Position numbers and translations under genes: made by a program. A DNA stretch of 64,000 nucleotides from an uncultured Eubacteriales bacterium (GTDB lineage Bacteria; Bacillota; Clostridia; Lachnospirales; Lachnospiraceae), in assembly GCA_949283695.1 (NCBI GenBank), contig CASDTX010000035.1:11296-75295 (forward strand). Reading direction: 5' to 3'. Numbering within the stretch: position 1 is the stretch's first letter; the number at the start of each line of letters is the position of its first letter. This document shows positions 23,210 to 32,768 of the stretch, piece by piece. The notes under the pieces were generated by a model that was not told the DNA's origin, did no database searches, and worked only from the letters and a program-made list of their open reading frames with translations.

Positions 23210-23282
23210 GCGACAGTGGCTCAGTTGGTAGAGTACGACCTTGCCAAGGTCGGGGTCGCGGGTTCGAACCCCGTCTGTCGCT
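23210..23282 (+). tRNA. tRNA-Gly (anticodon GCC)
   Basis: Acceptor GCGACAG/CTGTCGC, D-arm GCTC-AGTTGGTA-GAGT, anticodon arm CGACC-TTGCCAA-GGTCG, T-arm GCGGG-TTCGAAC-CCCGT; CCA not encoded. Confidence 0.97.
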
Positions 23283-23476
23283 CTGAAGAAGACATGTTGA
23301 ACAGCAAGTGATATCTTGCGGGAGACATGTCTTTTTGTTTTTCCAAATCTGTCTTTCATAGACCTCATTGCCCCTTGTCCGCAGACGCTGCTTCGTTCTG
23401 TTTTCAAAAGAAAAAGAAAGATGCCCCTTTACATGGCCGTAGTCTGCCTGTGTCGGTGAAGGGGCATGTTTTTCGA

Positions 23477-24148
23477 TTAGTCTTGTCTTGCGGCAGGTTC
23501 GCTGCTCTCAGCTGTCTTCAATGCGGAAAGTTCCCGGTAGATTGTAGGAATGCTGCATCCAAGCAGCCGTGCGATACGGGGGACAGAGCCTTTCACCATG
23601 AAGATCTTCTTATCCTGAAGGCGGGAGAGAATCGCAATTCGGTCACTTCTGGAAAAATGTTCCGGAATCGTTTCAGCGTACAGACTGTGCAGAGTCTGGT
23701 TGATCGCATTGGATACACTGTCCTGAAAGGTTTCTGTGTTGGCGTCGTCATGTTCAGCTACCCGGGTGATCCCAGGTTCAAGTCCTCCCAGCATGAGCGC
23801 AGTGTTGCTGATCAGCTGGAAGTCGGAGGTATCCATGTTAATACAGAGCATGCCGAGCAGCTCGCCCTTTGATTTAATAAAGTATGTGGAGGAGCGCAGC
23901 AGCCGGCTTTCGCCTGCGTAACCGGAATAGTTCGCCACATAGTCCTTATTTTTCCATTCGCCGCTGGAGATGATTTTCTCTGCAAAATCGGTCATCGGAG
24001 CGCCTACACTGCGCCCGCTGATATGGCTGTTGGAGATGGCAGCGATCTTTTTCGTGCGGCAGTCTAAAAGCGCAGCCTCATAATGTCTTCCCAATGCTGC
24101 TCCGAGAAAGGGAATGAGATTTTTATAGTATTCCATAATATCGTTCAT
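23477..24148 (-). CDS. YheO-like PAS + HTH transcriptional regulator
   Basis: 'ISNSHISGRSVGAPMT', 'LRSSTYFIK...GMLCINMD', 'IFMVKGSVPRIARLLGCSIPTIYR'. Confidence 0.88.
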   Translation of the reverse strand: MNDIMEYYKNLIPFLGAALGRHYEAALLDCRTKKIAAISNSHISGRSVGAPMTDFAEKIISSGEWKNKDYVANYSGYAGESRLLRSSTYFIKSKGELLGMLCINMDTSDFQLISNTALMLGGLEPGITRVAEHDDANTETFQDSVSNAINQTLHSLYAETIPEHFSRSDRIAILSRLQDKKIFMVKGSVPRIARLLGCSIPTIYRELSALKTAESSEPAARQD

Positions 24149-24365
24149 CTTTGATCACCTGAATTGTACACTGACACTACCCTGAATTCTTAGTTGCATC
24201 ACTTCAGTACTGTTCCATTCTGAAACCGGCTTCACAACAGGCTGATGATCTCAAAGGTGTATGGTTTGTAAAGGATTCTGGAACTCCTGAGTTTTCCATG
24301 TAGGTCTAGACTATCACAAAAATAATACGGAATCAAGCCGTCAGCCTTCTGCAGGAAGTGCGGCA

Positions 24366-25253
24366 TCAGCTGTCTGCAGGAAAGCGGCGGAAATAATTTT
24401 GTACAAAGGTAATGAATGCCCGGCTGATCGGTGAGATTGATCCAAGGTCATTGTAGATGATTTTGAGCTCGCGGCAGGGCTTTTCTTCCAGGTTCCGGGA
24501 GACGAACGGCATATTCAGGTAGTTCTCGAACGACATTTTCGGCAGAATGCTCACTCCCAGATTCCGGGAAATCATAGATACAGTGAGATTGTCATCAGAT
24601 ACGGAATAGCCGATATTCAGGTTGAGCTGATATTTGCGGATCAGCTGTCCGATCTGGTGGTTCGGGCCCTCGCCGGGCATGATGAATACTTCTGATTCTA
24701 AGTCGTGAAGAGACAGAGATTCTTTTTCTGCGAGCGGATGGCCGCAGGGAAGGACAGCCTGAAGGTCTTCACGCAGCAGGGGGAAGGTTTTAAAAGGCAG
24801 TTCTGTGGAAACAGATGAAAATCCGAAGTCTACCCGTCCTCCGGCCAGCATTTCTTCTACTTCTTCATAATTTCCATCAATTACGACAATGTGAATATTT
24901 GGATGGAGCCGGTTAAATTCTTTGAGCAGATCTGGGAAATACTGGATTGCCAGACTGGGGATTGTGGCGATGCACAGTGTGCCGGACTCAAACTCACGGT
25001 AGGAGGTAAGGGTGAAATCCAGCGTGTTCTGTGCGGTTACAATATTGCGGATGTAGGGAAGAACATCGATTCCGGCGCGGGTCAGACTGATGTCATTACT
25101 TTCCCTGTTCAGGAGTTTAAACCCGAAACTTTTCTCCAGAGAAGAGACAGAATGGCTGACAGCAGACTGGGTATAGCCCAATTCGACGGCAGCTTTGGAG
25201 AAACTGCGGCATTCCAGTACTTTAAGAAAAATTGAGTATTTTACGGTATCCAT
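24366..25253 (-). CDS. LysR family transcriptional regulator
   Basis: 'SFSKAAVELGYTQSAVSHSVSSLEKSFGFKLLNR'; AGGAGG RBS before ATG 25253. Confidence 0.95.
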   Translation of the reverse strand: MDTVKYSIFLKVLECRSFSKAAVELGYTQSAVSHSVSSLEKSFGFKLLNRESNDISLTRAGIDVLPYIRNIVTAQNTLDFTLTSYREFESGTLCIATIPSLAIQYFPDLLKEFNRLHPNIHIVVIDGNYEEVEEMLAGGRVDFGFSSVSTELPFKTFPLLREDLQAVLPCGHPLAEKESLSLHDLESEVFIMPGEGPNHQIGQLIRKYQLNLNIGYSVSDDNLTVSMISRNLGVSILPKMSFENYLNMPFVSRNLEEKPCRELKIIYNDLGSISPISRAFITFVQNYFRRFPADS

Positions 25254-25508
25254 AAGAAACCTCCTGACGTAAGCTGTTTTGTACATAGTGCCATAAATGA
25301 TAATATTTTTTTATTAAAAATTGCTCATGAAGAAAAGTGAACAAGTGGATGAAAATGATTTGTTGGATTTTTCGTCAATCCCCTGATATTATGAATTCAG
25401 AAAATAATTGATCGATAATTCAACACAATTTAATAAATATAAAGATAAATAAAACAAAATATGTACTAATTATAAGATTATATCTCTTGAAATGCAATAA
25501 AATGCGGG

Positions 25509-25544
25509 ATGAATTTTATTCATAGCATTATGAAACAGACTGTT
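25509..25544. promoter_or_regulatory. Probable LysR binding site(s) in the AT-rich divergent region
   Basis: ATGAA-N5-TTCAT (T-N11-A) at 25509-25523 and a second ATGAA half-site 21 bp downstream. Confidence 0.55.
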
Positions 25545-25654
25545 GGACAGAGGTCTCCAATATACGCAGTGATGATAATTAATTATTATAAATTTTATTA
25601 TGCACAAAAACAGAAAAAATATACGCAGAGATGTGCAGTGAGAGGAGAGTTGCT

Positions 25655-26599
25655 ATGAGTGAGCTGACAGGGAGGATATTTAATATTCAAAAGTGTTCCA
25701 TCAGAGACGGACGGGGAATGCGGACTACGGTGTTTCTGAAAGGATGCGGACTGCGGTGTCTGTGGTGCGCAAACCCGGAGGGGATTTCGTTTAAACCGGA
25801 GATTTCGCTCAATCCTGCCAATTGTATGGGCTGCGGATTCTGTCTGAAGAAATGTCCCTCCGGTGCGGTATACCTGGACGACAGCGGGCAGATGAACTAT
25901 GACCGCAAGCGATGTACCGCCTGCGGGACCTGCGCGGCTGTCTGTCCCACGGAGGCGAGGAAGCTGTTCGGGCAGGATTATACGGTAGAGGAAGTGTTCC
26001 GCAAGATCTATCAGGATCGGTTCTATTTTGAACATTCCGGAGGGGGCGTGACATTCTCCGGAGGGGAGGCTCTGATGCAGCCTGAATTTCTTCTGGCTGT
26101 GTGCAGGAAATGCAGGGAGTATGGGATCAACGTCGCTATTGAGACCTGCGGCTGCGGGGAATATGAACGGTTCGCTCCCTGCCTGGATTATATTGATTTT
26201 ATTTACTTTGATATCAAACATATGAGCCCGGAGACGCACAGGAGGATCACGGGACAGAGCAATGAAAAGATCCTGCAGAATCTGGAGCGCATCAATCGGC
26301 ATGGGATCGAGATCTGCATCAGGACGCCGGTTGTGCCCGGATGGAATGACTCAGAGGAGAATATACGGGCAACTGCACAGTACATTGCAGAGCTGTCTTC
26401 TGTCAGAAGATACGAACTCCTGGCCTACCATAAGCTGGGAATTAATAAATACAAAATTCTCGGAAAACAATACACGCTGAACGATGTAGAGGAACCGGGG
26501 GAAGCGCAGATGCTTCATCTGGTGGACCTTGCAAACGACATTCTTTTACCCGCCGGAAAGAAATGCTTCTACAACAAAGATAACAGCGCGGATGAGTGA
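25655..26599 (+). CDS. Glycyl-radical enzyme activating protein (radical SAM with ferredoxin insert)
   Basis: 'RTTVFLKGCGLRCLWCANPE' (CxxxCxxC), two CxxCxxCxxxCP motifs, 'SGGGVTFSGGE'. Confidence 0.95.
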   Translation: MSELTGRIFNIQKCSIRDGRGMRTTVFLKGCGLRCLWCANPEGISFKPEISLNPANCMGCGFCLKKCPSGAVYLDDSGQMNYDRKRCTACGTCAAVCPTEARKLFGQDYTVEEVFRKIYQDRFYFEHSGGGVTFSGGEALMQPEFLLAVCRKCREYGINVAIETCGCGEYERFAPCLDYIDFIYFDIKHMSPETHRRITGQSNEKILQNLERINRHGIEICIRTPVVPGWNDSEENIRATAQYIAELSSVRRYELLAYHKLGINKYKILGKQYTLNDVEEPGEAQMLHLVDLANDILLPAGKKCFYNKDNSADE

Positions 26600-26675
26600 T
26601 TGCTTGTTCTGGCTGCGAGGGGACGCAGGTCAGAATTTTATATGCAATATATTTTCAATCAAAGGAGGAAGTGCT

Positions 26676-29048
26676 ATGAGCAGCAAAAAAGTTGAGTTTC
26701 TGAAGGCGCGCCTGCGAAATACCAATCCGTCGATTTCGCTGGATCGGGCCAGACTTGTAACTGAGTTCTACAGGATTCCGTCTGTAGAGTCCCCCATTTC
26801 CAGGAAAGCGAGACTGCTGGAGTATCTGTTGAAAAATATGAAAATATTTATCAACCCGCAGTCGATCTTTGTGGGCGACCATGGCGAGAGATACCGGTCA
26901 GTTCCGGTATTTCCAGAGTGGGGATCGAACTGGATCCTGGAGGATATTGACACGTTTGACACACGCTCCACAGATAAGCTGGAGTGGGCGGAGCCGGGAG
27001 ATAAGGAAGAGCTGATCAAGATCTGTACAGAATGGAAAGGACACGGCTTCCGGGAAGTAGTAGACAGCAGGATTCCGGACGATATGAAACAGGCGTCGCT
27101 GGACGGACTGATCACCATCGGATCCAGGATTGTATCCACAGCAAGCCATATGCCTCAGTACGGAGAGATCTTCAAGAAAGGCTTCCGCAAGATGATCGAG
27201 GAGATCCAGGAGAAGCTGGATGGAATTGAGCATTATGATTATGTTACTCAGGAGCAGAAAGATACATGGGAAGGCATGATCGTGACTCTGAACGCGGCGA
27301 TTATGTTTGCTCACCGGTACGCAGATCTGGCGCGGAAGATGGAAGCGGAGGAGACTGATGAGACGAGGAAGCAGGAGCTTCTGCGTATCGCTGAGACATG
27401 CGAGCGTGTGCCGGAACTCCCGCCGAGGACATTCTATGAGGCGATGCAGTTCTTCTGGTTCATTCATCTGATCTATCAGATAGAAAATGCGGGGCATAAT
27501 CATTCTGTAGGCCGTTTTGACCAGTTCATGTATCCGTACTTCCAGCATGATATCGAAGAGGGGATTGCCACGGAAGAAGATATCGTGGAGATGATCGAGT
27601 GTATGCTCATCAAGTGGACGGAGATCTTTGAGCTGCGGGATCATATCGAGGCAGAGGCTTATGCAGGATTCCCGATGTGGACGAATATCACCATCGGCGG
27701 AATTGACGGGGAAGGAAAGAACGCGTGCAACCGCCTGACGAATCTGTTCCTGGAAGCAGCGGATGGAGCGCAGACGACACAGCCGGCTATCTCATTCCGC
27801 TACAATAAGAAGATTGACAGAGAGACATTCAGGAGAGCACTGAAGCTGACCCAGAAGGGACTTGGACAGCCGGCATTCTTTAACGACGACATCAATATTC
27901 CGAGAGTGCTCGCGAATGGATGCAATGATATCCGGGAAGCGCGGGATTATGCGATTGAAGGCTGTGTTGAGGCACAGGTTCCGGGCAAGACTGATTTCCG
28001 TCCGGTTGCCGGATTCATCAATATTCTGAAAGTACTGGAACTGGCATTGCATAATGGCGTAGACCCCAACACAGGACGTCAGTTCGGGCCGAAGACCGGA
28101 ACGATGGAAGAGATGGACAGCATGGAGAAATTCATGGACGCATACAAGGCCCAGCTTTCATACATTATTGACTATCACCTGAAAGCGTACGGAATCTGCT
28201 CTGCCCTGCATTCACAGATCTGTCCTACCGTGTTTGCATCTACCTTGGTAGAGGGCTGTATCGAGAAGGGCAGGATCCTGCAGAAAGACGGGGCAAAATA
28301 CAGCAGTACAGGAACCTTCATCAGCGGTGTTGCCAATGCGGCAGACTCGCTGGCAGCCATTGATCAGGCTGTATTCCAGCAGAAACTTCTGACCATGCCG
28401 GAGCTGGTGGATATTCTCGACAGGAACTATGAAGGCAGCGAAGAGTGGCGGCAGATGTTCCTGAATAAATATGTACATTTCGGAAACGACGAGGACCTGG
28501 TAGATGATTACTGCCGTCAGGTAGTGACCTACTGCGCAGAAGAAAACCGTGCGCACAAGGATTCCCGGTTCGGCCAGTATGAGCTGATTCTGCTGAACCA
28601 GACTTATAACATCTGGCAGGGACGTGTCGTGGGAGCTACACCAGACGGGCGCAGGGCGGGAGAACCGCTGGCCAATAACGCGTCGCCGTCGAATGGAATG
28701 GACCGCAACGGCCCGACCGCCGTGGGTAATTCGATAGGAAAAATGGATACCGTCATGGTTCCGAAGGGAGTTCTGGTCAACCACAAGTTTGATCCGGCTG
28801 TTGCCAAAGGCGAAAAGGGGCTGGAGATGCTTGAGACATTTGTGAAGGGATACTGTGAAGCCGGCGGACAGCATGTGCAGATCAATGTGGTTGATACAAA
28901 GACACTGCGTGATGCGCAGGCTCATCCGGAGAACTATAAGAACCTGATGGTACGTGTGGCCGGTTATTCTGCGTTCTTCGTAGAGCTGGATCCACGTGTG
29001 CAGGAGAACATTATCGGACGTACCGAACATTCGAGCTGCTGCGGTTAG
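26676..29048 (+). CDS. Glycyl radical enzyme, PFL2/dehydratase-eliminase group, substrate unknown
   Basis: AAGGAGG RBS; 'PPRTFYEAMQ', 'GRFDQ', Cys loop 'YAIEGCVEAQVPGK', 'GATPDGR', Gly loop 'RVAGYSAFF'. Confidence 0.95.
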   Translation: MSSKKVEFLKARLRNTNPSISLDRARLVTEFYRIPSVESPISRKARLLEYLLKNMKIFINPQSIFVGDHGERYRSVPVFPEWGSNWILEDIDTFDTRSTDKLEWAEPGDKEELIKICTEWKGHGFREVVDSRIPDDMKQASLDGLITIGSRIVSTASHMPQYGEIFKKGFRKMIEEIQEKLDGIEHYDYVTQEQKDTWEGMIVTLNAAIMFAHRYADLARKMEAEETDETRKQELLRIAETCERVPELPPRTFYEAMQFFWFIHLIYQIENAGHNHSVGRFDQFMYPYFQHDIEEGIATEEDIVEMIECMLIKWTEIFELRDHIEAEAYAGFPMWTNITIGGIDGEGKNACNRLTNLFLEAADGAQTTQPAISFRYNKKIDRETFRRALKLTQKGLGQPAFFNDDINIPRVLANGCNDIREARDYAIEGCVEAQVPGKTDFRPVAGFINILKVLELALHNGVDPNTGRQFGPKTGTMEEMDSMEKFMDAYKAQLSYIIDYHLKAYGICSALHSQICPTVFASTLVEGCIEKGRILQKDGAKYSSTGTFISGVANAADSLAAIDQAVFQQKLLTMPELVDILDRNYEGSEEWRQMFLNKYVHFGNDEDLVDDYCRQVVTYCAEENRAHKDSRFGQYELILLNQTYNIWQGRVVGATPDGRRAGEPLANNASPSNGMDRNGPTAVGNSIGKMDTVMVPKGVLVNHKFDPAVAKGEKGLEMLETFVKGYCEAGGQHVQINVVDTKTLRDAQAHPENYKNLMVRVAGYSAFFVELDPRVQENIIGRTEHSSCCG

Positions 29049-29150
29049 TTACCTCATATGGGGCAGGAGGACGGACAAGGAGAGGTTCCGGGTCCGTCCC
29101 CTGCAGATACAAGACGACATGAAAGAAAAAGAGAGAGAGGGATATATTCT

Positions 29151-30263
29151 ATGGAAAAGAAAAACATGAGCTGGTTCCATTTTTTCATGCTGGCAGGAGC
29201 ACTTCTGGCATATCTGATTGGTTCGGGATTTGCGTCTGGACAGGAGACCATGCAGTATTTCTCAGGCTATGGCTATATGGGAATTGCTGTAGGTGTGATT
29301 AATTTCTGCATGATGTATTTTACTTACGTGGCTTACGCGTATGCCGGGCGCACCAGGGGACTTAAGAATCTGAAAGAAGTGGCTGTATTCTATGCAGGTC
29401 CATATGCGGGAAAGTTGTTTGAGATTTTTGCATGGGTGTTTGGCGCATGCTGCTACATCTTTATGTGTTCCGGCGGTGCTTCAACCTTCCATCAGCAGTG
29501 GGGGATCCCCATGTGGGTGGGCCTGATCATTATGGTAGGCGGCTCTGTACTGACTGCTGTGTTCGGACTGCAGAAGGTCGTGGATATCATCGGCTGGATC
29601 GGACCAGTGGTGGTATGTTTTACACTGATTATCGGACTGATTTCCGCATTTACCTTCTTCCCGCGGATCCCGGAAGGCATTGAACTGCTGGAAAGCGGCG
29701 CTGTGACGATCACCCGCAGTACGAATCACTGGCTGACAGCAGGTCTGGCATTCGGCGGATGTTCTCTGCTTCTGGTGTCCAACTTTGTCGCTACACTCGC
29801 ATATCAGAACAGAGAGTATAAGTTCGGCCGCTTTAAAGTAGTTCTCTTTATCGGTGCGTTCTTTATCTCTACTGTATCTGTACTGATGGGTATGAACCAT
29901 ATCGGAAACATTGAAGAATCTTCATCTGTTTCCATTCCGAACCTGGCGCTCGCGTCACACATTATAGGGCCGGTCGGCGCGCTGTTTGCTGTTGTTATCA
30001 TCCTGGCGATCTATTCCACGATCTGTCCTTCTCTTTGGAATTCGATCAGCTTCTTCTTTGATGATGATAAAAGCCCGAAGTATCGGACAGCTGTCATTGG
30101 TTTCGGAATCCTGACATACGTTATCTGTATGTTTGTGCCGTATGAGGACCTGCTGGGAGTGATTATGACATACTGCGGATATACAGGCGCAATCGTATTT
30201 GTGGTTATCGTGGCCAGGTATGTCATGGTCAGAGCAAACGATAAAAAGACAGAGGAGGTATAA
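29151..30263 (+). CDS. YkvI-like polytopic membrane protein (putative transporter)
   Basis: 'IGSGFASGQE..QYF' signature and about 10 hydrophobic segments. Confidence 0.75.
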   Translation: MEKKNMSWFHFFMLAGALLAYLIGSGFASGQETMQYFSGYGYMGIAVGVINFCMMYFTYVAYAYAGRTRGLKNLKEVAVFYAGPYAGKLFEIFAWVFGACCYIFMCSGGASTFHQQWGIPMWVGLIIMVGGSVLTAVFGLQKVVDIIGWIGPVVVCFTLIIGLISAFTFFPRIPEGIELLESGAVTITRSTNHWLTAGLAFGGCSLLLVSNFVATLAYQNREYKFGRFKVVLFIGAFFISTVSVLMGMNHIGNIEESSSVSIPNLALASHIIGPVGALFAVVIILAIYSTICPSLWNSISFFFDDDKSPKYRTAVIGFGILTYVICMFVPYEDLLGVIMTYCGYTGAIVFVVIVARYVMVRANDKKTEEV

Positions 30264-30265
30264 TC

Positions 30266-31477
30266 ATGTTTCGTCCAGTCGCACAGCTTCCGCTGGATTA
30301 CAGTGTATTCAAAGATAAAAAGTCCGTCTTCTCATGGGCACCGTCCGGAGCGATTCTGTTTGGAAACGGGGCGTCCGGGAGAACCGGAAGGGAACTTCGG
30401 AATCTGGGAGTGAAGAAAGCAACGCTTGTTACCGATCAGGGCCTGGTGAAATTCGGCATTGCGGGAAAAATTATCGCGTCTGTGGAGGAAGCCGGAATTG
30501 AGCTGAATGTGTATGATCAGTGTGAGCCGGACTCTTCGGTAGAGACTGTCAATAAGATCGCGGAGATGGGGAAAGATTCTGACGTTCTGATCGGGCTCGG
30601 AGGCGGAAGCTCGATGGATCCTGCCAAGGCAGCGGCAATCGTAATTACAAATGGAGGTGATATCAGGGATTATCAGGGATGTGATAAGTTTACGAAGGCG
30701 CCGCTGCCGATCGTGGCGATCCCGACTGCTGCCGGCACCGGAAGTGAATGTACGCCGTTCGCGGTGATTGCGGACCGTCAGAGAGAATGGAAGATGCCCA
30801 TCGGAGGAACCGGGATCATGCCGGCGCTTGCAGTGTGTGATCCTGAGCTGACGTATTCTCTGCCGCCTTCCGTTACAGCGGCGACCGGTATGGACGCGCT
30901 GACCCACGCGATTGAAGCTTATACGTCCCGCTGTACAGAACCGATTTCGGATGCACTGGCAAGCCAGGCGATTAAACTGATCGCACACGCGATCCGTCCG
31001 GCTGTGTTCCGCGGGGACAGTGATAAAGATGCGCGCTACGATATGATGATGGGCGCCATGCTGGCAGGATATGCCTTCACATCGGCAAGTCTGGGCATCT
31101 CACACTGTATGGCTCATCCCCTGGGGGCACTGTATCATGTACCCCACGGCGTTGCGAATGCGCTGTGCCTGCCGGTGGTTATGGAGTTTAATATGGGGGC
31201 ATGGCCGGAACGCTATGCAGAGATCGCCGGATTCTTCGGCAAGGATACGCATGGCATGTCTGTGCGGGAGGCTGCAAAGGCTGGCGTAGAATGTGTATAT
31301 GAACTGCTGGCAGATATGCCTGTGAAGCCGCTGGAGGCTTATGGGGTGACCGAGGAGAGTCTGGATCGTCTGGCCGATGATGCCATGCTGGGCGGAGACA
31401 GACCGAATAATGCCAGAATGACGGAGAAAGAAGATTTTATACGTCTTTACAGAAAGGTTATGACGTTAAAACGATAA
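30266..31477 (+). CDS. Iron-containing alcohol dehydrogenase
   Basis: 'LVTD', 'GLGGGSSMD', 'PTAAGTGSE', 'GMDALTHAIE', 'HCMAH', 'PHG'. Confidence 0.95.
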   Translation: MFRPVAQLPLDYSVFKDKKSVFSWAPSGAILFGNGASGRTGRELRNLGVKKATLVTDQGLVKFGIAGKIIASVEEAGIELNVYDQCEPDSSVETVNKIAEMGKDSDVLIGLGGGSSMDPAKAAAIVITNGGDIRDYQGCDKFTKAPLPIVAIPTAAGTGSECTPFAVIADRQREWKMPIGGTGIMPALAVCDPELTYSLPPSVTAATGMDALTHAIEAYTSRCTEPISDALASQAIKLIAHAIRPAVFRGDSDKDARYDMMMGAMLAGYAFTSASLGISHCMAHPLGALYHVPHGVANALCLPVVMEFNMGAWPERYAEIAGFFGKDTHGMSVREAAKAGVECVYELLADMPVKPLEAYGVTEESLDRLADDAMLGGDRPNNARMTEKEDFIRLYRKVMTLKR

Positions 31478-31568
31478 GAGAAGTCTGGAATGAAGACAGC
31501 AGCGGCATACAAGAGGCGTGCTGCCCTTGTATGCCGCTGCTGCGTTCCGGGAAGGAGCAGAAAAACGG

Positions 31569-32768
31569 ATGAAATATAATTTTGATGAAATTATAGACCG
31601 CAGGAATACGAACTGTATGAATACGGACGGGTTTCGGCAGTATATTTTTCACGCAGATCAGGATATGAAATTCCCGTTCGCGGATGAGGAATTTATCCGC
31701 ATGTGGATCGCAGACATGGAGTTCGCCACTCCGGACTGTATCATCCAGGCAATGAAAGAACGGCTGGACCGGCGGATCTTCGGCTACACCAGGATCTTCG
31801 GCGATGATTATTACCGCGCGTTTTCAGGATGGACGAAGAAGCTGTATGACTGGGAGTTCCCGAAAGAGAATCTGTATACTTCGCACGGTGTGATTCCTGC
31901 GCTGTACGAACTGACCGGCTATATCTGCGGACCGGAGGACAAGGTGCTGATGATGACGCCGTCGTATGCTTATTTTAAATATGCGGCAGAACACAATCAT
32001 GTTGCGTATGTGTGTTCCGATCTGGTGAATCCGCGGGGGGACGGATATTATGAAATCGATTTTGACGATTTCCGCAGGAAGGCGCAGGATCCTTCTGTGA
32101 AACTGTTTATCTTCTGCAATCCTCATAATCCGACGGGAAGACTCTGGTCGGAGGAAGAACTGCGGAAAACAGCGGAGATCTGCTTTGAGAACGGCGTGAT
32201 GATCCTGTCTGATGAAATCCACTGTGATCTCATCCGCACCGGACGGAAACATATCCCCCTGGCAAAACTGTATCCTGAGAGTGATCAGATCATTACCTGC
32301 ATGGCGCCGAGCAAGACGTTTAACACTGCGGGACTGCAGTTCTCCAATATCATCATTCCCAATGAAAACGTGCGCAGCCAATGGCTCAGATACCATAATT
32401 TCGATGAGAATCCGCTGTCACTTGCGGGCGCGCAGGCTGCCTACGAAAAAGGATATGACTGGATGACGGCGCTCCGGGAATACCTGGATGAGAACTTCCG
32501 CTTCACAAAGGCTTATTTAGAGGAACATCTGCCGGAAGCAGTCTTCCGCATTCCGGAGGCTACCTATTTAGGCTGGGTTGATGTGGGAGCTTATGTGGAC
32601 AAAGAGGTGAATCTTCCGCTTCTGTTTGCAGAAAAGGCAGGAGTTCTGCTGGAAGGCGGCAATATGTTTGTGCAGAATTCCGATACTTATATCCGGCTGA
32701 ACGTAGCCTGCCCGCGGGCGGTACTGGCCGAGGGACTGCGAAGAATCTGCCGTGTGCTGACAGAATAA
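31569..32768 (+). CDS. MalY/PatB family PLP-dependent C-S (cystathionine beta-) lyase
   Basis: 'MWIADMEF', 'IFGY', 'CNPHNPTGR', 'SDEIH', 'APSKTFN'. Confidence 0.92.
   Translation: MKYNFDEIIDRRNTNCMNTDGFRQYIFHADQDMKFPFADEEFIRMWIADMEFATPDCIIQAMKERLDRRIFGYTRIFGDDYYRAFSGWTKKLYDWEFPKENLYTSHGVIPALYELTGYICGPEDKVLMMTPSYAYFKYAAEHNHVAYVCSDLVNPRGDGYYEIDFDDFRRKAQDPSVKLFIFCNPHNPTGRLWSEEELRKTAEICFENGVMILSDEIHCDLIRTGRKHIPLAKLYPESDQIITCMAPSKTFNTAGLQFSNIIIPNENVRSQWLRYHNFDENPLSLAGAQAAYEKGYDWMTALREYLDENFRFTKAYLEEHLPEAVFRIPEATYLGWVDVGAYVDKEVNLPLLFAEKAGVLLEGGNMFVQNSDTYIRLNVACPRAVLAEGLRRICRVLTE

Follow-up and report, generated by a model that had tools for sequence, protein, structure and literature searches.

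A gene cluster at positions 23477–32768 of a 64,000-nucleotide stretch (the window) of contig CASDTX010000035.1, from an uncultured Lachnospiraceae bacterium (assembly GCA_949283695.1), carries genes for a glycyl radical enzyme (GRE), its activase, a YkvI-like membrane protein, an iron-type alcohol dehydrogenase (Fe-ADH) and a pyridoxal phosphate (PLP)-dependent enzyme of the PatB/MalY family. Judged from its sequence, this putative operon suggests that a sulfur-containing amino acid is handled by an anaerobic pathway not yet described, and the GRE is best read as a new eliminase that would help to break down a cysteine S-conjugate bearing a hydroxyl group, or a related sulfur amino acid, where the substrate and the order of steps are those that we infer below. 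A preliminary description had listed these genes in one direction, with LysR and YheO regulators diverging from them and no microcompartment genes. Pfam and NCBIfam scans returned the same gene set, order and orientation, and the bacterial microcompartment shell family PF00936 was absent from both the window and the 79%-complete assembly.

A bounded glycyl radical enzyme clade and its predicted pocket

The GRE gene (26676–29048, plus strand) encodes 790 amino acids matching PF02901 (634.6 bits) and PF01228 (114.6 bits), and the protein clearly belongs to a known superfamily and class. Its open reading frame (ORF) spans 26529–29048, with the true start at the ATG at 26676, upstream of which lies AAAGGAGG. 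All motifs quoted previously (YAIEGCVEAQ, ENAGHNHS, AYAGFPMW, TDFRPVAG and LLNQTYN) are in the translation, and the Gly loop RVAGYSAFF occupies residues 760–768 with Gly763 as the predicted radical site, while Cys430 (thiyl), Glu432 and His158 are the predicted catalytic residues. The GCVE motif at residues 429–432 is kept in all clade members, in agreement with the earlier assignment to single-Cys enzymes; such a CXE motif defines the Cys loop of GRE eliminases and isomerases, as opposed to the Cys-Cys of pyruvate formate-lyase (PFL) (PMC13450708). The additional Glu two residues before the Cys, previously singled out as unusual, is present here (E428), while seven of the 14 clade clusters (P0008–P0010 and P0012–P0015) have Leu at this position. 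The residue is therefore not diagnostic of the clade, and it was dropped as a clade signature because it is not conserved. At the C-terminus, TEHSSCCG (29025–29048) places two adjacent Cys past the usual GRE end, where the clade consensus reads RTEHTxCx. Elsewhere in this genome, a different contig (G000:C18:70263-72593) encodes one more GRE, a distant one with 32% identity.

The sole NCBIfam model passed by the GRE was the generic PFL2/glycerol-dehydratase subfamily TIGR01774, while scores stayed far below cut-off for the HypD equivalog NF043068 (598 bits against 1100), CutC (473 against 1050), HpfG and HpsG (538 and 514, both against 1000) and the decarboxylase GRE equivalogs (about half of the cut-off). 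Its solved relatives rank as HplG (7VUA, 694.6 bits in a full-length alignment), glycerol dehydratase (GD, 594.9), propanediol dehydratase (545.0), the unnamed GRE 9RCO (535.2), HypD (468.1) and IslA (7KQ3, 374). HplG is about 43% identical to the window GRE (42.7% for the HplG-like protein P0064) and has a different pocket. Thus, high identity combined with a conserved pocket was found with no characterised GRE, and the view that this enzyme joins no characterised family has held.

A search of 5.8 billion proteins set the limits of this rare clade, with thirteen 90% clusters at 71–91% identity and one at 55% (P0016), followed by a continuum at or below 51%. The clade profile scored its 14 clusters at 1533–1659 bits and the next protein at 1125 bits, a gap of about 400 bits. 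In a FastTree phylogeny of 119 sequences the group at 71% identity or above had a local support of 100%, and of 96% when P0016 was included. Sister to this clade is a branch of 33 rows holding the HplG-like sequences, with the GD-like sequences in the other half of the tree. The segments STASHMP, ENAGHNHS, AYAGFPMW, GK(T/S)DFRP and LNQTYNIWQG show no variation in the group at 71% or above and nearly none in P0016, and the pocket segments of every neighbouring GRE clade carry other residues. One such neighbouring clade, P0024 (48% identity, with a GKTDGRP pocket), is likewise uncharacterised and would belong to another unassigned GRE pathway; it has no PatB at its locus (L087:5624-13097), where the neighbours are a 2-hydroxyacid dehydrogenase, a Na+/H+ antiporter-family protein and an SNF-family transporter.

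Pocket positions were mapped via pairwise sequence alignments and the residue lists of two papers, PMC13450708 and PMC7077986, the latter giving Asp278, Asp339, Ser334 and Thr645 for HypD. By this mapping the catalytic core is retained: Cys430 and Glu432 are common to the window GRE, HplG, GD and HypD, and His158 corresponds to a His in HplG, to His164 of GD and to His160 of HypD. By contrast, the predicted substrate-contact shell is unlike those of all three. HplG resembles the window GRE in its CXE Cys loop, its His158 equivalent and its half of the tree, and His276, Trp335, Gln642, Tyr644 and Asn645 are common to both. It differs at positions 274–275 (H-N here, G-D in HplG), 329 (Tyr, Asp), 332 (Phe, Asn), 442–444 (R-P-V, Q-S-N), 447 (Phe, Tyr) and 640–641 (L-N, A-T).

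GD (1R8W/1R9D) and propanediol dehydratase (5I2A) are similar to the window GRE in fold, in the CXE motif, in the equivalents of His164 and His281 (His274 here), in having an Fe-ADH partner and in the absence of a small subunit. Both pocket features read earlier from the sequence were borne out: the G-H of the diol-dehydratase-like segment (β1 strand) is retained, and FRP stands in place of the His-Asp pair, with G-W-H-D in GD against D-F-R-P-V here. Trp445 and His446-Asp447 of GD are thus replaced by Arg442 and Pro443-Val444, Ser282 by Asn275 and Tyr640 by Leu640. At positions 276, 329, 335 and 642 GD has Ile, Phe333, Tyr339 and Ser, while Phe447 is common to both. Identity of the GRE as a glycerol dehydratase was rejected because the His-Asp pair is missing. 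In HypD, Asp278, Ser334, Asp339 and Thr645 correspond to His274, Tyr329, Met334 and Gln642 here; it has Ala, Phe and Phe340 at positions 275, 276 and 335, a gap followed by V-L at 442–444, Tyr450 at 447 and the same Leu at 640.

The predicted cysteine-S-conjugate lyase and the conserved partners

The last gene of the cluster (31569–32768, plus strand) encodes a predicted PatB1-type (long-loop) PLP-dependent cysteine-S-conjugate β-lyase. Its ORF spans 31518–32768, and the likely start at 31569 is where the alignment to solved homologs begins. The protein aligns with FnaPatB1 from Fusobacterium (7QUG) over residues 20–415 (396 residues, 617.7 bits), being about two-thirds identical, and with ShPatB from Staphylococcus hominis (6QP1) at 477.5 bits. 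Both share its elongated N-terminal loop and SKTFN PLP-lysine motif, and TIGR04350 is covered over the whole model length at 336.8 bits, just under the cut-off of 340. Assays of FnaPatB1 covered S-alkyl and S-hydroxyalkyl cysteines, and the enzyme is reported to cleave S-allyl-L-cysteine along with further cysteine S-conjugates (PMC11203769), and this close relationship upholds the earlier naming of the window enzyme as a PatB-type C-S lyase. The long-loop PatB1 subfamily is very large: over 3000 clusters, at identities of about 65%, come from various phyla. Whereas the window copy lies inside a GRE operon, the close homologs checked elsewhere (C. drakei, Anaerotignum) stand alone in uninformative contexts. 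Given these solitary homologs and the presence of four other PatB/MalY paralogs in the genome (32–38% identity), the copy in the operon is a dedicated extra one. To our knowledge, all characterised PatB/MalY enzymes cleave C(β)-S bonds.

Related loci were compared using tblastn with the window proteins and Pfam and NCBIfam scans of the ORFs in the gaps, giving 11 loci that are distinct at species level and have enough flanking sequence. An Fe-ADH was present in all 11 within the fetched flank and a PatB-family lyase in 10, so that GRE, Fe-ADH and lyase occur together in 10 of 11 loci from Lachnospiraceae and Oscillospiraceae. The co-occurrence of patB with GRE orthologs, proposed as a check of the C-S hypothesis, was therefore found. 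The syntenic order in relatives is activase, GRE, YkvI-like protein, Fe-ADH, an optional 2-Hacid_dh-like gene, an optional RidA gene and PatB. This cassette was found in Ruminococcus turbiniformis (L006), Faecalicatena contorta (L007, L016), F. fissicatena (L008), Schaedlerella arabinosiphila (L009) and Flavonifractor (L012), in Oscillospiraceae metagenome-assembled genomes (L013, L014) and in metagenome contigs (L089, L090). The YheO-like, LysR, activase, GRE, YkvI-like, Fe-ADH and PatB proteins of these relatives are each 51–93% identical to the window copies.

Several of these type-A loci have a divergent 2-Hacid_dh-like gene and/or a RidA gene inserted before PatB. The former encodes a protein with at most 51 bits to any solved enzyme and thus with no informative relative, while RidA (TIGR00004, 163.8 bits) adjoins PatB in L001, L007, L008 and L013. 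RidA proteins quench enamines and imines, and their position beside PatB in several loci fits a β-elimination that frees 2-aminoacrylate. L013 and L014 carry a replacement where the FucO-like ADH would stand, and they have a YqhD-like Fe-ADH further downstream. Two loci designated type B, L005 (GRE 71% identical) and L085 (GRE 55%, cluster P0016), have a polar amino-acid ATP-binding cassette (ABC) system instead of the YkvI-like protein and add an aspartate aminotransferase (AspAT)-like transaminase (55% identical between them) and a 2-hydroxyacid dehydrogenase (47%). The best solved relatives of the type-B binding protein, Lmo2349 and B. subtilis YtmK, match weakly (76–78 bits) and are cystine-type binders, which gives a weak lead to a cystine-type importer. 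L085 additionally has an EamA protein, a YqhD-like Fe-ADH and a classical short-loop PatB (39% identical to the window PatB, TIGR04350 450 bits). Because this PatB is of another subfamily, two PatB subfamilies appear to have been recruited independently. Together with the frequent position of RidA beside PatB, this is the strongest evidence that C(β)-S lyase chemistry is part of the pathway.

A further arrangement, in L001–L004, has a GRE 84% identical to the window copy with a PucR-like regulator, two Fe-ADHs, an AP_endonuc_2 protein, RidA and PatB. L001 (L001:1-5695, a metagenome contig whose GRE cluster P0007 is named Faecalicatena contorta at NCBI) is a paralogous GRE locus, and this type of GRE copy is absent from the genome of strain 2789STDY5834876. 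Genes for a class II aldolase, an FGGY (xylulokinase-like) kinase, a 2-hydroxyacid dehydrogenase, a YkvI-like permease and a PucR-type regulator are 5' of its GRE, and the AP_endonuc_2 (sugar-isomerase-fold) gene lies between GRE and ADH. From these neighbours, the carbon skeleton released may be a polyol or ketose.

The Fe-ADH of the window (30266–31477, plus strand; PF00465 157.9 bits, PF25137 182.8 bits) has GbsB (353 bits) and lactaldehyde reductase (329) as its best NCBIfam models, with SarD, a sulfoacetaldehyde reductase, at 290 bits and all of them below cut-off, and methanol dehydrogenases, 1,3-propanediol dehydrogenases and FucO as its relatives in the PDB. It is thus predicted to be nearest to enzymes interconverting 2- or 3-substituted short alcohols and aldehydes, namely GbsB, FucO and DhaT, and more weakly SarD. 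The polytopic membrane protein, a presumed importer (29151–30263, plus strand), has an ORF of 29058–30263 with a likely start at 29151. Behind its YkvI-like label is a similarity of 0.97–0.98 in ESM-Atlas language-model features to clusters of YkvI family membrane proteins; Pfam and NCBIfam scans gave no match. The protein is syntenic at 51–86% identity in relatives, and an amino-acid importer role has been proposed for one YkvI-family protein (PMC13628549). The activase (25631–26599, plus strand; TIGR02494, 354 bits against a cut-off of 174) is a radical SAM protein with a CX3CX2C motif (CGLRCLWC) and two additional ferredoxin-type 4Fe-4S Cys clusters. With this activase encoded next to it, the GRE shows all the catalytic hallmarks expected of eliminases or isomerases.

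Two regulator genes on the minus strand both face away from a 345-bp AT-rich divergent control region (25287–25630), read directly from the sequence between lysR and the activase gene, in which one promoter-like site was found at 25572–25601. The LysR-family regulator (24366–25286; PF00126 and PF03466, with no NCBIfam equivalog passed) is syntenic at 56–84% identity in L006–L009, L011–L014, L016 and L089. The YheO-like regulator (23477–24148; PAS_6 and HTH_22, PF08348 103.9 bits and PF13309 51.1 bits) is syntenic at 54–71% identity in L006–L009, L013, L014 and L016; searches of L011 and L012, the Flavonifractor loci, did not recover it. An Rfam scan gave a tRNA as its sole match, with no riboswitch, no T-box and nothing in the control region; a tRNA-Gly(GCC) lies at 23210–23283 between a major facilitator superfamily transporter gene and the YheO-like regulator gene. 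Promoter and terminator scans gave counts near shuffle expectation, and no terminator was found within the operon.

Just 3' of the GRE stop codon, a GC-rich hairpin lacking a U-tract (29063–29104, plus strand) has a centroid fold of −31.2 kcal/mol and a z-score of −3.7 over the 110-nt stretch 29046–29155. A hairpin is at the same place in L006 (z −5.0), L012 (z −3.0) and L007 (z −1.5, within shuffles), while none was found in L009; its position is conserved while the sequence varies. The hairpin may serve to stabilise the mRNA, or it may terminate transcription in part and so keep GRE levels high relative to the downstream products.

A different module, comprising a TPR protein, DUF4037, DUF4125 and an EamA-family exporter, is 3' of PatB in three genomes from two families (L009:16123-19503, L014:16505-21340 and L006:17126-19559), L014 adding a YqhD-like Fe-ADH. 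For the DUF4037 and DUF4125 proteins, neither a solved relative nor an NCBIfam name was found. The window's assembly lacks the module, which is therefore not core. L014 (CAVFGM010000061.1) is labelled Bacteroidaceae; since its cassette identities to the window are nearly the same as those of the Oscillospiraceae contig L013, it is probably mis-binned.

The proposed pathway and its alternatives

From the observed gene identities, motifs, clade limits and synteny we infer a class of substrate, a set of chemical steps and an order for them. The reading that we favour, tentatively and without claiming that it has the greater share of probability, is a LysR/YheO-controlled catabolic cassette for an imported sulfur amino acid, likely an S-substituted cysteine with an HO-C-C-S unit. 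In characterised GREs, a glycyl radical generates a thiyl radical, hydrogen is abstracted at the carbinol carbon, and a Glu-assisted loss of the vicinal group yields a carbonyl (PMC13450708). A cysteine thioether with HO-C-C-S is the best fit because this chemistry is joined here by an ever-present Fe-ADH, an amino-acid importer and a cysteine-conjugate β-lyase.

In such a pathway the YkvI-like permease (or the cystine-type ABC system in type-B loci) would import the compound, and the activase would install a radical on Gly763 that is relayed to Cys430 of the GRE. The thiyl radical would take a hydrogen from the carbinol carbon, with Glu432 and His158 managing the proton of the hydroxyl, and the adjacent carbon would lose its group as thiolate or thiol, or as hydroxyl when the substituent is a diol. 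The resulting aldehyde or ketone would be reduced by the Fe-ADH, while the PatB1 lyase would split the cysteine C(β)-S bond into pyruvate, ammonia and a thiol. Two orders can be envisaged. If PatB acts before the GRE, a hydroxy-thiol would be freed, which the GRE would convert to a carbonyl and sulfide or would dehydrate. By contrast, if the GRE acts on the intact conjugate, PatB would then act on the released cysteine or on a remodelled conjugate. In related loci, RidA would quench aminoacrylate and EamA would export the product. It is possible, but on present evidence doubtful, that this clade holds the first GRE whose target is the C-S bond of a thioether or thiol instead of that of a sulfonate, or which dehydrates a cysteine conjugate at its hydroxyalkyl arm.

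Several observations weigh against this reading. Neither a direct pointer to the substrate nor a gene freeing a specific conjugate was found in any locus. A β-lyase alone can cleave cysteine conjugates, so there would be no need for a GRE unless the cell gains from breaking down or detoxifying the S-substituent itself. PatB1-type enzymes are widespread and mostly unlinked to GREs, and L005, the sole distinct locus lacking PatB, has the AspAT-like transaminase and 2-hydroxyacid dehydrogenase, which means that PatB is possibly not obligatory. The strong hairpin 3' of the GRE leaves its putative co-transcription with the downstream genes in doubt, and the pocket mapping rests on pairwise alignment rather than on a structure. 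The preliminary description had suggested an undescribed pathway for an amino-acid-like or thioether substrate, with S-glyceryl-cysteine from lipoprotein turnover as one option. The new GRE clade, the conserved link to PatB and RidA speak for the general proposal. By contrast, no esterase, peptidase or other gene specific to lipoprotein remnants was found in any locus; since nothing in the loci points to S-glyceryl-cysteine, we rate this particular substrate as improbable.

The alternative that survives best, although we think it unlikely, is a 2-hydroxy-acid route, in which an imported amino acid would be converted by a transaminase or PatB to a 2-oxo acid and by a 2-hydroxyacid dehydrogenase to an (R)-2-hydroxy acid for the GRE. 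The 2-hydroxyl would then be the radical handle and the C3 group would be expelled (from 3-mercaptolactate, an S-substituted 3-thiolactate or glycerate), or the GRE would dehydrate a 2,3-diol acid to an aldehyde for the Fe-ADH, in parallel with the logic leading from taurine via sulfoacetaldehyde and isethionate to IslA. In L005 and L085 the transaminase and dehydrogenase genes do adjoin those of activase and GRE, accompanied by the polar amino-acid ABC importer. A conserved 2-Hacid_dh-like gene lies between Fe-ADH and PatB in several type-A loci, and the sub-threshold similarity of the Fe-ADH to SarD (290 bits) would agree with such a route. However, the window locus, L009 and L089 have neither transaminase nor 2-hydroxyacid dehydrogenase and yet keep GRE, Fe-ADH and PatB. 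A 2-oxo acid product would leave the ever-present Fe-ADH unexplained, and the type-A 2-Hacid_dh-like protein, 26% identical to its type-B counterpart, has no more than 51 bits to solved enzymes.

Given that HplG is the closest solved relative and that the clade is sister to the branch containing it, we also considered an HplG-like isomerase or HypD-like dehydratase acting on a sulfur-free hydroxylated amino acid (a hydroxyproline isomer or hydroxylysine), with PatB as a transaminase or deaminating lyase. The five pocket residues held in common with HplG (His276, Trp335, Gln642, Tyr644 and Asn645) and the amino-acid type of the transporters would suit this model. By contrast, it is countered by the mapped pocket swaps (G274H, D275N, D329Y, N332F and Q-S-N to R-P-V at 442–444) and by the HypD model score of 598 bits against 1100. 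The family expected for 2-amino-4-ketopentanoate (AKP) thiolase was missing from the Pfam lists of the 11 distinct loci, and no AKP thiolase, 1-pyrroline-5-carboxylate (P5C) reductase or proline racemase/epimerase family was found in any annotated locus. As far as we know from the PatB/MalY family, its enzymes cleave C(β)-S bonds, and the window copy is about two-thirds identical to an assayed one. This model is therefore rated as very unlikely.

Less probable again is that the GRE is a standard glycerol or 1,2-propanediol dehydratase of the B12-independent kind, working with a 1,3-propanediol-type Fe-ADH, the transporter and PatB being unrelated neighbours. Glycerol dehydratase is indeed the second-best solved match (594.9 bits), equivalents of His164, His281 and Glu435 are kept, and the Fe-ADH resembles DhaT and FucO. 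However, the His446-Asp447 pair is replaced by Pro443-Val444, with Ser282 to Asn, Tyr640 to Leu and Trp445 to Arg besides, and the tree places the GD-like sequences P0094 and P0100 in its other half. In place of glycerol, diol or microcompartment genes, those for an amino-acid importer and a C-S lyase adjoin the GRE here, and PatB and the transporter are syntenic across two bacterial families, as unrelated neighbours would not be.

Scarcely credible, finally, is a housekeeping cystathionine β-lyase of methionine biosynthesis that adjoins the GRE by chance: the homoserine dehydrogenase gene hom (start 32958) does follow PatB directly with no clear terminator between them, but it has its own promoter-like site and was not found in any of the sixteen related loci searched, while 10 of the 11 distinct loci have PatB behind the GRE cassette and the genome has four other PatB/MalY paralogs. 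As a member of the operon unit, hom was rejected because it is not syntenic elsewhere.

Relation to known systems and biological meaning

The cassette proposed for a hydroxylated cysteine S-conjugate resembles in its logic the sulfonate systems IslA/IseG and HpsG, where the route from taurine via sulfoacetaldehyde (with the Fe-ADH SarD) to isethionate likewise joins a GRE eliminase to a PLP enzyme and an Fe-ADH for work on a small sulfur compound, and where the C-S bond broken by HpsG adjoins a carbinol. By contrast, the PLP enzyme here is a predicted β-lyase rather than an ω-transaminase, a thiol or thioether rather than sulfite would be expelled, and the HpsG and HpfG models reached 514–538 bits against a cut-off of 1000. 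The tdc operon of E. coli encodes the LysR protein TdcA, the PLP dehydratase TdcB, the importer TdcC, the GRE TdcE and the RidA protein TdcF. By analogy only, a LysR regulator, an amino-acid importer, a PLP β-eliminating enzyme, RidA and a GRE are thus found in one anaerobic catabolic unit in both cases, whereas TdcE is a Cys-Cys keto-acid formate-lyase and the window GRE has a single Cys and CXE.

Neither this GRE clade nor its operon was described in the literature that we searched, which took in all GRE publications from 2024 onwards. According to a 2026 review, whole GRE clades remain unassigned, and no characterised GRE is known to cleave a thioether or thiol C-S bond, sulfonates being the only substrates listed for C-S cleavage (PMC13450708). 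The present clade has an unusually informative and conserved set of partners (a C-S β-lyase, RidA, Fe-ADH, amino-acid or cystine-type importers and EamA exporters) and occurs in the cultured strains of Faecalicatena contorta, F. fissicatena, Schaedlerella arabinosiphila and Ruminococcus turbiniformis, which makes the hypothesis directly testable.

GRE eliminases shape gut chemistry that is relevant to the host, including the formation of trimethylamine from choline and of H2S from isethionate, and the use of hydroxyproline from collagen. If the proposed pathway holds true, PatB, Fe-ADH and GRE would let gut Clostridia ferment β-hydroxyalkyl cysteine conjugates, among which S-glyceryl-cysteine from the turnover of bacterial lipoproteins and epoxide-derived conjugates delivered in bile would be candidates; we know of no catabolic route for either. 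Confirmation would add a new type of bond cleavage to GRE chemistry and would show how anaerobes dispose of cysteine conjugates, with a bearing on thiol and H2S production in the gut and on the fate of xenobiotic conjugates.

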